Source: a virus (taxonomy: Duplodnaviria > Heunggongvirae > Uroviricota > Caudoviricetes). From it: a stretch of 22,019 nucleotides of DNA. Both the position numbers and the translations under genes were made by a program. Under the pieces are notes generated by a model that was not told the DNA's origin, made no database searches, and worked only from the letters and a program-made list of their open reading frames with translations. How positions within the stretch are numbered: the stretch's first letter is position 1; each line of letters begins with the position of its first letter. Positions 2,193 to 14,318 of the stretch are shown one piece after another. The stretch lies in IMG/VR virus record IMGVR_UViG_2585427746_000008; one strand, given 5' to 3'.

Positions 2193-4257
2193 ATTGATTT
2201 CATTCAGTGACCTACCTAGTTCTTTGGCAGGTCTGCACAAAAAAGCAAAGAGGGAAGCGTGGAAAACGCGGCTAAAACCAGGGGTAAAAGGGAAAGTTTT
2301 AGAGTGTGAAATAGGGGCTTTGCCTTTAACTGTTCAGCAGGCAGTACGCGAACGCTATGCCCTGCAACTGATGACGCAAAAAGCCGATGAATCACCGGCT
2401 CCGGTAGTGACAAAGGCCAGGCGCTCACCTGCCGTGGTTGATGCGGTGGAGGCATATCGCGGATCACCACAACTGATGCTCGAACGCCTCAATGCCCTGA
2501 CTGAAAACCAGCGCCAGGTGGCTGATGCACGAATCGCGATCGTCAGCGAAGTTCTGAAAGTCGCGCAACAACCTGGTTTCAGCTGTGCGAAGGCTATCCG
2601 GTTTATCGTTGACAACCTGGCACGTTCGCAACTGGACGAGCGCATTGTGGCAATGGTTGAGACGGCGAACGCCAAAAAGGGAAACAGCCGTGCGTTGAGT
2701 GAAATCACGCTGAAACGCTGGATTGCAGCCTTTAACAAGGCGCAGAACGCCGCTGAACGCCTGCTTTTGCTGGCACCTGGTAAGCGCCAGGAAATAAAAG
2801 CCGAAGATATTAACTGGCTGCCCGAATTTCTGGCGCAGTATCGCCAGTCAAACGGCCGACCAATGACCGAGGCTTACGAGGATTTTGTCGCTGAATGGCA
2901 GCACCGGCACGCTGATGAGCCTTATATGCTCGATATCATGCCGTCTTACGACACCATCCGCCGCGCAATGAAGAAACTGCCGGAAGTGGTGAAACAAAAA
3001 GGCCGGGTGACCGGCAGTGAATACCGCCAGCTTGAGGGATTCACGCGCCGCGACTGGTCCAGAATGCCGGTGAATTATGTCTGGATTGGTGACGGTCACG
3101 GCATGAAGCTGAAATGCAGGCACCCGGTTCACGGGCGGCCATTTGCACCGGAAGTGACCTTTGTTATCGACGGTGGCACGCGCTTTGTGGTGGGCTGGAG
3201 CCTTGACCTGGCTGAAAATGTTTTCGCCGTAGCCGGTGCCATACAGTACGGTATTCGTAATCACGGCAAACCGTTTCTGTATTACTCGGATAACGGTTCC
3301 GGGGAAACCGCCGACATCCTGGATAAGGAAGTTGTGGGGATCCTGCCGCGACTGGGGATTAATCACCCAACCGGGATTGCCGGTAACCCGCAGGGACGGG
3401 GCATTATCGAACGGCTTAACCGCACGTTACCGATGCGTATAGCCCGTAAATACCGCACCTATTTCGGGAAAGGTGCAGATCGCGAGACGTTACGCAAAAC
3501 CAACCGCGATTTACGCTCGGCATTTACCGCCCTGCAACAGGGCAAACGGCTGAACGCCCGGCAACAGTCAGCGATGCGTGATTTACCGTCCTGGTCTGAA
3601 CTGATTGATGCCATTCGTGATGGCGTTGAGTGGTACAACAACCGGCCGCACGATGAATTACCCATGAAGCCGAACGGGAAGCATTACAGCCCGGCGGAGT
3701 TCAGAAAAAAACGCCTGGCAGAAGAGGACACGGAAATTGAATGGCTGTCCGATGTTGAGCTGCGGGATATGTTCCGGCCAATGGTGGAACGCCCTGTAAG
3801 ACGCTGTGAAATACGCTGGCTGAATAATATTTACTACGCGCCCGAGCTGAGTGATGAGCATGGCCGCAAGGTGCTTATCAGCTATGACATTCATGATGCC
3901 GAACGAATTACCGTACGTCGCCCGGATGGCAGCGTGATTTGCGAGGCGGTATGGGACGGCAATAAACGCGAAGCCTTCCCGGTCAGCGCGGAATACTACA
4001 AACAGCAGCAACGCCTTAAAGGTATGCGTAAACGCGCAGAGGAAAAAATCCGTGATGCCGAGGATGAGGTTGTCAACGTGCTGGAGCACAAGCCGCAGGA
4101 GCCCTGGCTGGAAAACATATACCGCCCTGTGGGTAATACGGTGACCGTTCAGCAACCTGCCGTTGATGATGAGCCTGATGAAGAATACGAGCGTAATTTC
4201 CAGCGGGGATTGCAGTTGCTCGAAGCGAAATTAAAAGAAAATGACCCTCTGGCCTGA
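2173..4257 (+). CDS. DDE transposase (MuA-like)
   Basis: Roughly 695 aa. N-terminal winged-helix motif shared with the repressor. Catalytic-core-like motifs VWIGDGHG, YSDNGSGE and GRGIIERLNRTL are consistent with a D-D-E triad. GGAGG lies 4 nt upstream of ATG 2173; the gene overlaps the ner 3' end. Confidence 0.9.
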   Translation: MWVAMTELISFSDLPSSLAGLHKKAKREAWKTRLKPGVKGKVLECEIGALPLTVQQAVRERYALQLMTQKADESPAPVVTKARRSPAVVDAVEAYRGSPQLMLERLNALTENQRQVADARIAIVSEVLKVAQQPGFSCAKAIRFIVDNLARSQLDERIVAMVETANAKKGNSRALSEITLKRWIAAFNKAQNAAERLLLLAPGKRQEIKAEDINWLPEFLAQYRQSNGRPMTEAYEDFVAEWQHRHADEPYMLDIMPSYDTIRRAMKKLPEVVKQKGRVTGSEYRQLEGFTRRDWSRMPVNYVWIGDGHGMKLKCRHPVHGRPFAPEVTFVIDGGTRFVVGWSLDLAENVFAVAGAIQYGIRNHGKPFLYYSDNGSGETADILDKEVVGILPRLGINHPTGIAGNPQGRGIIERLNRTLPMRIARKYRTYFGKGADRETLRKTNRDLRSAFTALQQGKRLNARQQSAMRDLPSWSELIDAIRDGVEWYNNRPHDELPMKPNGKHYSPAEFRKKRLAEEDTEIEWLSDVELRDMFRPMVERPVRRCEIRWLNNIYYAPELSDEHGRKVLISYDIHDAERITVRRPDGSVICEAVWDGNKREAFPVSAEYYKQQQRLKGMRKRAEEKIRDAEDEVVNVLEHKPQEPWLENIYRPVGNTVTVQQPAVDDEPDEEYERNFQRGLQLLEAKLKENDPLA

Positions 4258-12900: not shown

Positions 12901-13192
12901 AGATTATGTTGTGCCGATCCTGTCGGCAACGGCCACGGCCGGGGGGATCTTCATGGCGCTGATGCGCAAAACCTTCGTCCCCCGCGAGGCCTTTGAAAAA
13001 CTCTCCGATCGGGTTGAGCGGGTGGAGAGCCGGATTTCCGGCCTGCCCACGCAGCAGGAGGTGAACAGACTCAATATCGAAATCACCACCCTGCGCGGTG
13101 AGCTAAAGGCCACCAACGCCACCCTGAAATCCGTCTCTCATCAGAACGAACTGCTGCTGGAGCAGGCTGTAAGGAAAAAACACAATGAGTGA
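12881..13192 (+). CDS. membrane-anchored coiled-coil protein, candidate releasin (Mu gp25-like)
   Basis: N-terminal TM helix (VVPILSATATAGGIFMAL) followed by a heptad-rich helical region. Its position after the spanins and TraR-like gene matches Mu gp25. Confidence 0.5.
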   Translation: MWVSIVKDYVVPILSATATAGGIFMALMRKTFVPREAFEKLSDRVERVESRISGLPTQQEVNRLNIEITTLRGELKATNATLKSVSHQNELLLEQAVRKKHNE

Positions 13193-13475
13193 TTTCATTA
13201 CTGAAGATCAGCGTCTTGTCATTCTGCGGTCGCTGGCGGATTACAACGGCGAACTGGGCGAATCCGTGCTTCAGGACTGCCTGGATGATTACGGCCACCG
13301 CGTGTCCCGCGACACCGTTCACACCCACATTGCCTGGCTTGCTGAGCAGGGACTGGTGCGTAAGCGCACGCTTGTTAACGGTTATTTCATCGCTGAACTG
13401 ACCGGCCGGGGTCAGGATGTGGCGGAAGGTCGTGCCACTGTTCCGGGTGTGAAGAAACCACGCGCAAGGGGGTAA
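13185..13475 (+). CDS. hypothetical protein, possible winged-helix (Mu gp26 position)
   Basis: 96-aa ORF with AAGGAAAAAA RBS; its start overlaps the upstream stop. Confidence 0.5.
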   Translation: MSDFITEDQRLVILRSLADYNGELGESVLQDCLDDYGHRVSRDTVHTHIAWLAEQGLVRKRTLVNGYFIAELTGRGQDVAEGRATVPGVKKPRARG

Positions 13476-13477
13476 CG

Positions 13478-14059
13478 ATGGATAAGCCGACGCGTGGCCG
13501 TGTACGCAAGGTGGATTTGCTCCCCGACAGCATTCGTAAGCCGCTGCTGGAAATGCTGCGTGAAAAACGCCTGACGCAGGTCCAGATCCGCGAGGAAATC
13601 AACCGTCTGATCCGTGAGGCAGGCCTGCCGGAAGAGCAGCAGCTTTCACCGGCGGCCATCAGCCGGGAAGCCTCCCGTAATGAGCTGATTGCCCGTAATC
13701 TGCGTGATTTACGCGAGCAGACAAAAGCCATGATGGCCGAACTGGGGGATAAGCCGACCGGTGAAACCACGGCACTGATTCTGGAGATGTCCCGTGCCCT
13801 GATGTACCGCCGTCTGCGTGCCGCCACCGAATCCCTGAACAGCGACAGCGATGTGGATATGCGCCTTATTAAGGACATCCTCCTGTCGGCACAGCGTGCG
13901 GAAAGTGCCGCCGAGCGCAGCATTAAGCGTGAAAAAGAAATCCGGGCCGCATTTGCTGAAGAGATGGCGAACGCCGTCACCGACGAGTTGCGCGGCGTGG
14001 ATGGCATGAGCGAGCAGATAGAATTCCGTATCAGGCAGATGCTGCTTGGTAAGGCGTAG
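13478..14059 (+). CDS. putative terminase small subunit (Mu gp27-like)
   Basis: N-terminal motif RKVDLLPDSIRKPLLEMLREKRLTQVQIREEINRL resembles Mu gp27-family proteins as recalled. Lies just upstream of the large terminase. Confidence 0.6.
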   Translation: MDKPTRGRVRKVDLLPDSIRKPLLEMLREKRLTQVQIREEINRLIREAGLPEEQQLSPAAISREASRNELIARNLRDLREQTKAMMAELGDKPTGETTALILEMSRALMYRRLRAATESLNSDSDVDMRLIKDILLSAQRAESAAERSIKREKEIRAAFAEEMANAVTDELRGVDGMSEQIEFRIRQMLLGKA

Positions 14060-14069
14060 GAGGTGAATC

Positions 14070-14318
14070 GTGGTAACAGATAACCGCTCACTGATGAGCA
14101 GTGCTCATCAGAAGGCATTCAGTCTTGCAACACAGTTACCTCCTGAAACCATAAAAGCGTGTCGTGAGTTGACTGAACTCAGCATTGCCGGGGAAATATC
14201 CCTGGAACAACTGCATTCGCTGCTGGCAGGGGCTGTCACTGATGAGTTGAGTGGCGTGGACGTGATGACTGAAGAGCTTGAGTTCCGAATCAAAAGCATT
14301 CTGACAGGTAAAGCCTGA
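14070..14318 (+). CDS. hypothetical 82-aa protein whose C-terminus duplicates the C-terminus of the upstream small-terminase-like protein
   Basis: Strong AGGAGGTGA RBS before GTG 14070. C-terminus AVTDELSGVDVMTEELEFRIKSILTGKA matches AVTDELRGVDGMSEQIEFRIRQMLLGKA of the 13478 product. Confidence 0.5.
   Translation: MVTDNRSLMSSAHQKAFSLATQLPPETIKACRELTELSIAGEISLEQLHSLLAGAVTDELSGVDVMTEELEFRIKSILTGKA

Follow-up and report, generated by a model that had tools for sequence, protein, structure and literature searches.

A putative chimeric small gene between the terminase genes of Mu-like prophages of Escherichia coli

Introduction

The predicted small terminase subunit of bacteriophage Mu is gp27 (DUF3486; PF11985, PHROG 426), and the large subunit is gp28. 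Here we describe ORF82, a gene of 82 codons that lies between the gp27-like and gp28-like genes of a Mu-like prophage in the IMG/VR record IMGVR_UViG_2585427746_000008 (Caudoviricetes); 'the window' denotes this whole stretch of 22 019 nucleotides, and 'ORF' an open reading frame. ORF82 resembles Mu gp27 in its C-terminal ∼ 28 residues, in its place in the operon, in its overlap with gp28 and in a predicted loop followed by a terminal helix, but it has neither the N-terminal helix-turn-helix region nor the long central helices of gp27, and it is not itself a small terminase.

The rest of ORF82 points to a different family. F/gp30 of Mu and gp7 of SPP1 belong to the MuF superfamily (PF04233, TIGR01641), and residues ∼ 3–50 of ORF82 are homologous to residues ∼ 31–80 of F; only this N-terminal segment of ∼ 50 residues is shared, however, and the MuF domain proper is missing. 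MuF genes are found directly downstream of the portal gene, whereas ORF82 adjoins the small terminase gene, and SPP1 gp7 is known to bind the portal (PMC5576092). The small terminase (TerS) of lambda and of P22 uses its flexible C-terminal part to bind the large terminase (TerL) at the N-terminus of the latter (reviewed in PMC9611059). ORF82 has copied a short flexible C-terminal TerS segment of this kind, but the TerL-binding peptides of lambda gpNu1 and P22 gp3 have no sequence relationship to its tail, and binding of gp27 to gp28 is proposed by analogy only. ORF82 itself falls into PHROG 30922, where neither its composite origin (F-like module plus gp27 tail) nor its genomic polymorphism is recorded.

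Accessory genes at the mosaic junctions of phage genomes, or 'morons', are said to have been described by Hendrix and colleagues. Like these, ORF82 is an extra gene that is present or absent between conserved genes, has a distinct (here lower) GC content and occupies a site that holds different cargo in other phages. Unlike these, it has no detected promoter or terminator of its own, runs in the same direction as its neighbours and appears to be translationally linked to the essential downstream gene; its building blocks, too, are not foreign cargo but pieces of structural and packaging genes that belong to the phage itself. Small proteins of satellites, such as Ppi of the Staphylococcus aureus pathogenicity islands (SaPIs) and Rpp of the E. 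coli phage-inducible chromosomal islands (PICIs), act on terminase subunits; they target the TerS of the helper phage and alter packaging. By analogy they would be the closest functional precedent for ORF82 acting as a decoy, but ORF82 is phage-encoded, inside a complete Mu-like prophage (transposase A/B, lysis, terminase, portal, F, protease and major head genes), and the sequences are unrelated. ORF82 is best classed as an accessory gene at a mosaic junction, one for which packaging and head genes of the phage itself supplied the fragments.

Results

ORF82 ends in a copy of the gp27 C-terminus

A first-pass annotation had noticed that the 82-residue product of 14070–14318 ends in a near copy of the C-terminus of the upstream 193-residue protein. 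This is indeed the case: 19 of the 28 residues that it quoted are identical, and a single BLASTP comparison of the two C-termini gives 20/31 identities and 26/31 positives (E 1e-12). The C-terminus of ORF82 reads AVTDELSGVDVMTEELEFRIKSILTGKA. When the region is compared with itself, a constant offset of 259 nt brings the two tails into register, with 64% DNA identity over 13961–14059, against 41% for the best alternative offset and 31%, the background level, in the 150 nt upstream of the tail. The similarity is significant (local alignment score of 62, compared with a maximum of 28 in 500 shuffles). Half of the identical tail residues use different codons and the replacements are conservative, so the tail copy is old and not a recent repeat.

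ORF82 resembles gp27 in its last 31 residues and nowhere else. No gp27 domain, or any other Pfam family, is found in ORF82 at E ≤ 0.1, and gp27 matches the PHROG 30922 profile at positions 51–82 only. The description of the gene as a partial duplication remnant therefore fits the last ∼ 27 codons, which derive from gp27; it does not fit the first 55, which are unrelated to gp27 (hhalign probability 0.1%), homologous to F/gp30 and located in a variable cassette. The same hhalign value rules out that the N-terminal part is a diverged gp27 fragment. Read-through from, or fusion with, gp27 is also ruled out; ORF82 lies in the +1 frame and the gp27 frame runs into a TAA seven codons past its TAG stop. 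Thus, ORF82 is more composite than first described, although it is an extra gene with a true paralogous copy of the gp27 C-terminal peptide. This paralogy, the absence of the gene from Mu (in NC_000929 the last position of gp27 is 12891 and the first of gp28 is 12899, with nothing between them) and the strong ribosome-binding site are all borne out in full.

Origin of the N-terminal module

The first 55 codons (N-module) have relatives that carry no gp27 tail. In a metagenome allele (L010), gp27 and the Shine-Dalgarno sequence (SD) are as in the ORF82 allele and are followed by a 67-residue ORF (ORF67, product P0012), which is homologous to ORF82 residues 1–55 and matches phrog_30922 with E 2.6e-14. 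P0012 ends without the gp27 tail; 120 nt follow and then gp28 with yet another N-terminus. The 120-nt spacer (L010, 4181–4300, minus strand) also holds an antisense ORF of 39 residues (MMLQTQLELLERYLSG...) with a strong SD (GAGAGGAGAGATGATG), which overlaps the 3′ end of ORF67. In 11 tail-less loci the insert opens, after the gp27 stop and an SD, with an ORF of 56–84 residues related to the N-module. One of these, ORF69 of locus L045, is 33% identical to ORF82 (E 6e-8) and 37% identical to P0012 (E 2e-13). Small genes of this type, here termed mini-MuF, directly follow gp27 in about a quarter of the sampled Mu-like phages and bring a strong ribosome-binding site of their own. The endings GKT, GYA and GCA of tail-less alleles were considered as vestigial tails and ruled out, since they score no better than shuffles (p > 0.2, six loci).

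Two weak pointers lead from ORF82 to the minor head protein, a match to phrog_220 (E 0.0018) and a match in a Vibrio Mu-like phage (tblastn over 2.3 Gb of phage DNA, E 7e-3). ORF69 of L045 is 39% identical to residues 35–78 of the Vibrio MuF protein (BLASTP, E 5e-9). The small-protein family as a whole aligns with an alignment of F/gp30 N-termini (window, Mu, Vibrio and L010) at F residues ∼ 31–77 (hhalign probability 94.9%, E 4.3e-8). The same register is recovered with ORF82 and P0012 alone (E 0.0025) and when the F/gp30 segment of the window is compared with the N-module as a single sequence (E 8.7e-4). The negative controls (portal, gp28 and gp27) gave probabilities of 0.3% or less. The small proteins and the F segment share the motifs NW, AHxxAFxxA and I..G.S. 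The MuF domain model has no Pfam match in nine family members even at E ≤ 10, and there is no NCBIfam match. As judged by these alignments, the small proteins are paralogues of the N-terminal segment of F and not MuF-domain proteins.

An AlphaFold2 (AF2) model of ORF82 has an overall predicted local distance difference test score (pLDDT) of 70.5 and predicts three helices in the N-module (residues 5–22, 25–39 and 45–60, pLDDT 75–85). A Foldseek search with this model gave no significant match in PDB or BFVD, and no solved structural relatives of gp27 or F were found.

The joint between the two parts appears to fall at an Ala-x-Ala common to both parents (joint marked by a slash): LVAHA/QSS in P0012, LLAGA/VTDEL in ORF82 and EMANA/VTDEL in gp27. 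Tail-less forms are widespread, the tail-bearing form occurs in one E. coli lineage and tail-less alleles show no vestigial tail; the fusion is therefore the derived state. By its sequence ORF82 is a chimera in which a mini-MuF module is followed by a gp27 tail, a combination present only in this E. coli lineage.

The copied tail has left its gp27 context

The last ∼ 45 residues form the most conserved block of the gp27 family. Among homologues of 40–100% identity, L171, R172, G173, D175, G176, S178, E179, E182, I185, L189 and G191 are invariant. The ORF82 tail keeps 8 of these 11 positions; R172S, G176V and S178T are changed, as is a conserved hydrophobic position (L190T). All four substitutions are fixed in the ORF82 alleles and occur in none of about 50 distinct gp27 tails, which argues that they arose after the peptide had left the gp27 context. 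Other gp27-invariant positions vary among ORF82 alleles (G62S, L70P).

At the DNA level the ORF82 tail has its nearest counterpart in the insert-free E. coli allele (79% identity, with an identical GGTAAAGCCTGATGAA junction); its identity to the tail of the adjacent gp27 is 68%. In the AF2 models ORF82 has a disordered linker (59–67) and a terminal helix (68–79), and gp27 the end of a long helix, a loop (172–178) and a terminal helix (179–189); the gp27 model is poor (pLDDT 54), and the elements of gp27 are predicted with low confidence.

Junction alleles and distribution

The first-pass annotation suggested looking for the gene in related prophages. Among 231 E. coli records that hold the gp27/gp28 junction, ORF82 is present in 25, in all of which the Prokaryotic Genome Annotation Pipeline (PGAP) calls a coding sequence. 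The other 206 lack exactly 259 bp, and there gp27 itself ends in a TGATG that overlaps gp28. The 25 carriers are 93–100% identical at the DNA level. Insert-bearing and insert-free alleles are near-identical up to ∼ 13985 and again from ∼ 14362, which defines a cassette of ∼ 380 bp that runs from the final ∼ 25 codons of gp27 through ORF82 into the first ∼ 15–17 codons of gp28. The GC content drops from ∼ 59% in gp27 to 47–50% across 14000–14400. The frame is intact at 82 codons in 15/15 loci (nine distinct sequences), with the start position kept as ATG or GTG.

The tail-bearing family is narrowly distributed. It forms 11 clusters in 5.8 billion proteins, all named ones being from E. coli, and gives six hits among 1.84 billion representatives; none was found in 50 697 phage records or in the GTDB species representatives (one genome per species). 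PHROG 30922 is matched over its full length (ORF82 residues 1–82 to profile positions 1–82 of 82); the family was thus already catalogued, without functional annotation. Prophages with ORF82 interrupt five host genes (PTS EIIC, hsdR, torZ, a MASE1-domain gene and a fimbrial usher gene). The lineage is therefore viable and owes its spread to transposition or infection; carrying ORF82 does not preclude productive packaging.

In 80 IMG/VR loci, sampled through gp27 homologues of 40–100% identity, the gap between gp27 and gp28 ranges from 0 to 631 nt; it is about 0 in most and 44–631 nt in many. This makes the gp27/gp28 junction a hot spot for insertion among Mu-like phages. Its longer inserts (L045, 3067–3697; L047, 3073–3708; L051, 3073–3699; L067, 3067–3707; L070, 3073–3660) contain an extra plus-strand ORF of 63–67 residues (phrog_21398) and an antisense ORF of 61–89 residues (phrog_25148) starting with MKEKLTIDQKIEIA; L045 also has an antisense ORF of 162 residues. 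This sense/antisense layout looks like independently expressed cargo. PADLOC gave no meaningful hit for the small ORFs or the other hot-spot cargo; its one match, to a Type I methyltransferase, was marginal (E 0.003) and concerned a single antisense ORF. The junction of two more distant Mu-like phages (L079, 3070–3243; L087, 3067–3255) holds a very hydrophobic ORF of 57–62 residues that starts in overlap with the gp27 stop and is predicted to encode a small membrane peptide.

The allele with ORF67 has deletion derivatives (L020, ∼ 3079–3160; L025; E. coli CI5, NZ_CP011018.1), in which the ORF has shrunk to its first four codons (ATGGCAACAG), followed directly by the sequence that immediately precedes gp28. 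Loss of the small gene thus does not entail loss of the prophage.

The gp27 of the window (13985–14059) and that of the insert-free L004 (E. coli E2855) have five differences, all in the last 12 residues (EQIEFRIRQMLLGKA versus EQLESRIKGILLGKA), which places a sharp boundary inside the conserved tail-coding region. The first ∼ 15–20 residues of the large terminase (14318–14365) are wholly different among junction alleles (MNKAKEKSPSLIQMTPP, MNNAEELSPLLTNTVST and MSKRTGEEKIKPDTGLIKLSPP) and lie upstream of a conserved PRKIDL motif; the N-terminus of the large terminase is the TerS-binding site in lambda and P22. In M18 (L003, 1671–1724, corresponding to 14070–14123 of the window), the first 18 codons of ORF82 have diverged strongly (proportions of synonymous and nonsynonymous differences, pS 0.67 and pN 0.32) and the rest is nearly identical, a pattern that suggests a recombination breakpoint inside ORF82.

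Translation signals and proposed coupling to gp28

ORF82 has the strongest ribosome-binding site of the region, as the first-pass annotation had stated. With TAGGAGGTGAATC-GTG it ranks top of the 15 gene starts tested in the window (−16.1 kcal/mol), followed by gp27 (−11.9 kcal/mol), while gp28 has almost no SD (−3.9 kcal/mol). The SD is kept in all ORF82 alleles and in the tail-less ORF67 allele. The TGATG in which ORF82 overlaps gp28 is the same overlap that joins gp27 to gp28 in insert-free relatives. ORF82 and gp28 thus have both the stop/start overlap and the weak downstream SD by which a coupled pair is recognized. No sigma-70-like site was found in 13000–14800, and no plus-strand terminator between 14060 and 14320.

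Constraint on the ORF82 peptide

The distribution of polymorphic sites over codon positions 1/2/3 was compared in the same eight prophages. It is 0/0/16 in gp26, 0/0/25 in gp27, 9/6/46 in gp28 and 0/6/7 in ORF82; the ORF82 pattern differs from that of gp27 (Fisher p = 6e-4). For the nine distinct ORF82 alleles the counts are 10/13/19, which is not different from uniform (p = 0.22). Pairwise ratios of nonsynonymous to synonymous substitution rates (dN/dS) are 0.14–0.62 for ORF82 and 0.2–1.3 for the wider mini-MuF family, whose members are fast-evolving small proteins. Constraint on the ORF82 peptide is weak and far more relaxed than on gp26 and gp27.

The prophage and its neighbouring genes

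The window covers the left two-thirds of a Mu-like prophage that sits within a gene for the phosphotransferase system component PTS EIIC. It encodes a repressor-like protein, transposase A/B, lysis functions, gp25/gp26-like proteins, gp27, gp28, the portal, F, G, the protease/scaffold I and the major head protein T. The region is 100% identical in several complete E. coli genomes. The 193-residue gp27-like protein is 58% identical to Mu gp27, and the gp28-like gene has 68% DNA identity to that of Mu. The features discussed here are collected in Table 1.

Table 1. Positions of the genes and sequence elements at and around the gp27/gp28 junction of the window.
Feature	Position	Strand	Basis
gp27-like small terminase gene, 193 aa	13478..14059	+	PF11985 Phage_Mu_Gp27, E 3.1e-33, residues 12-193; PHROG 426 'terminase small subunit', E 8.6e-55
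Tail copy 1, gp27 residues 166-193, AVTDELRGVDGMSEQIEFRIRQMLLGKA	13973..14056	+	part of the most conserved block of the gp27 family
Variable cassette separating junction alleles	13985..14362	+	alignment with insert-free relatives; GC dip
Shine-Dalgarno sequence AGGAGGTGA of ORF82, overlapping the gp27 TAG stop	14058..14066	+	-16.1 kcal/mol against the 16S 3′ end
ORF82, putative chimeric small gene, 82 aa, GTG start, PHROG 30922	14070..14318	+	profile match, E 7.6e-57
N-module, ORF82 codons 1-55, predicted 'mini-MuF' three-helix module	14070..14234	+	homology to tail-less post-gp27 ORFs; F/gp30 profile match; AF2 model
Tail copy 2, ORF82 residues 55-82, AVTDELSGVDVMTEELEFRIKSILTGKA	14232..14315	+	BLASTP, E 1e-12 against the gp27 tail
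TGATG stop/start overlap of ORF82 and the large terminase gene	14316..14320	+	read from the sequence
gp28-like large terminase gene, 554 aa	14318..15982	+	PHROG 2 'terminase large subunit', E 6.3e-43
F/gp30 gene segment, residues ∼ 31-80, paralogue of the ORF82 N-module	17645..17794	+	hhalign to F residues 31-77

The F gene (17555–18886) follows the portal gene and was identified by PF04233 and TIGR01641. The large terminase (14318–15982) has no Pfam or NCBIfam match at the thresholds used, its identity as TerL coming from PHROGs only, and PGAP labels it 'hypothetical protein' in every E. coli genome examined. No tRNA or structured RNA was found in the window. Its probable left prophage end lies at 960–1110, with the PTS EIIC coding sequence of the host extending to ∼ 984; three copies of a GATACTG-containing motif (at about 975, 1023 and 1075) resemble transposase-binding repeats. 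One protein of 291 residues from a Logan contig (P0016) is a gene call that fuses gp26 and gp27 (…KKPRARGVTMDKPTRGR…), implying that the gp26 stop is lost in that assembly or that the assembly is in error.

Discussion

We propose, at about an even chance of being right, that ORF82 is a translated but dispensable accessory gene of the late packaging operon, made by recombination, whose tail is kept mainly as the initiation and coupling region of gp28. For its origin we infer illegitimate recombination at the gp27/gp28 hot spot: a mini-MuF small gene with its own strong ribosome-binding site would have been joined in frame to the last ∼ 27 codons of a gp27 allele, and these would have brought along that allele's native stop/start overlap with gp28. 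The resulting order would be complete gp27, ORF82 (mini-MuF plus gp27 tail) and gp28. Ribosomes would load on the very strong SD of ORF82, translate through the copied tail, terminate at the TGATG and reinitiate on gp28, itself almost without an SD. On this mechanism the tail would be retained for the gp28 initiation region and not for binding the partner of the gp27 tail, and if ORF82 acts as a protein at all, it probably does so through its mini-MuF module. An open frame, a very strong SD and a weakly constrained peptide would then have a single explanation.

Several observations weigh against this proposal. Both the translation of ORF82 and its coupling to gp28 are deduced from sequence features alone. 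When the gp28 SDs of coupled and uncoupled alleles were compared, several uncoupled alleles turned out to have weak SDs as well, so gp28 may not depend on coupling. Among the gp27 alleles found, none has a tail closer than 79% DNA identity. In addition, the dN/dS of ORF82, at about 0.4, falls short of 1 (p = 0.04 in the pair that has diverged most); together with the four fixed tail substitutions this leaves room for some selection on the peptide, possibly for an altered function.

One alternative is that the ORF82 tail is a functional mimic that binds the partner of the gp27 tail. If lambda and P22 are a guide (PMC9611059), this partner would be the large terminase, bound at its N-terminal region. 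ORF82 could act as a decoy, a competitor that tunes terminase assembly, or as an adaptor that tethers the large terminase to the partner of the MuF-like N-module, possibly the portal or procapsid. The copied block is the most conserved part of gp27 and hence functionally important; ORF82 keeps 19/28 of its residues (including L171, G173, D175, M177, E179, E182, I185, L189, G191 and K192), its tail is predicted to form a flexible linker and helix like that of gp27, and its very strong SD suggests co-expression with both terminase genes. The dN/dS below 1 would fit as well, and so would the origin of the N-module in a head protein, given that the SPP1 relative of this protein, gp7, is a portal binder (PMC5576092). 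However, that the Mu gp27 tail binds gp28 is itself an analogy. R172, G176 and S178, invariant in all sampled gp27 tails, are lost, G62S and L70P vary among alleles, and polymorphism is near neutral. The gene is moreover missing from about 90% of closely related prophages and from Mu, and related mini-MuF genes do without the tail. We consider such a mimic unlikely, and the sequence evidence argues mildly against the decoy or competitor raised in the first-pass annotation. A more elaborate version, in which ORF82 bridges or blocks two packaging partners, the N-module binding that of the minor head protein (plausibly portal or procapsid) and the tail the large terminase, appears to us decidedly improbable. 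Such a factor might dock terminase on procapsids without the small terminase, or titrate both partners to time packaging; alternatively, ORF82 could act as a decoy that diverts host defences triggered by terminase or by proteins associated with the portal. As a corollary of the bridging idea, the tail-less mini-MuF proteins would be an unrecognized class of small regulators of packaging or head assembly.

ORF82 could also be a neutral recombination scar, untranslated or with a harmless product, that persists because there has been too little time for decay. Its narrow distribution and the near-uniform codon-position polymorphism point that way, as do in-frame deletion variants (79 and 80 residues), 49-residue gene calls, one frameshifted variant and the deletion derivatives of the sister allele (L020, L025 and strain CI5). 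The open frame itself says little here, since only about 2 of the ∼ 42 polymorphic sites would be expected to create a stop (an estimate). On the other hand, the near-perfect SD is conserved and the start position kept in all alleles, there is no stop or frameshift in 15 loci and 25 complete genomes at up to 7% DNA divergence, and the N-terminus of M18 is still in frame at a pS of 0.67. The dN/dS of about 0.4 also speaks against a scar, as does the parent mini-MuF family, which stays open across phages whose small proteins are only 20–35% identical. A mere scar is thus, in our view, doubtful to much the same degree as the mimic. Finally, ORF82 could be a truncated gp27 paralogue, produced by tandem duplication of the 259 bp (82 codons) at the 3′ end of gp27 and since diverged. 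This would explain why the constant offset between the tails equals the insert length, and with MAFFT the N-module can be made to align weakly with gp27 residues 112–165. A duplicated 259-bp unit is nevertheless ruled out by the background-level in-register identity (31%) upstream of the tail; the N-module fits the gp27 family profile with a probability of 0.1% only, is related instead to F/gp30 and has homologues without a gp27 tail. We regard this origin as extremely improbable.

Our preferred explanation, a recombination-made accessory gene whose tail serves mainly the initiation of gp28, gives ORF82 a clear evolutionary anatomy, which has to be set against its narrow distribution and weak constraint. 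The gene documents one way in which new small genes are made: in-frame fragments of two of the phage's own genes are joined, and the link to an essential downstream gene is kept. It also leads to an unannotated family of small proteins from the MuF N-terminal region, located right behind the small terminase gene in many Mu-like phages. If the copied peptides do not keep their binding partners, ORF82 is an ordinary mosaic scar that carries a lesson for annotation, namely that PHROG 30922 is a chimera and not a small-terminase fragment. If they do, ORF82 and its relatives would be natural probes of important surfaces of gp27 and F.

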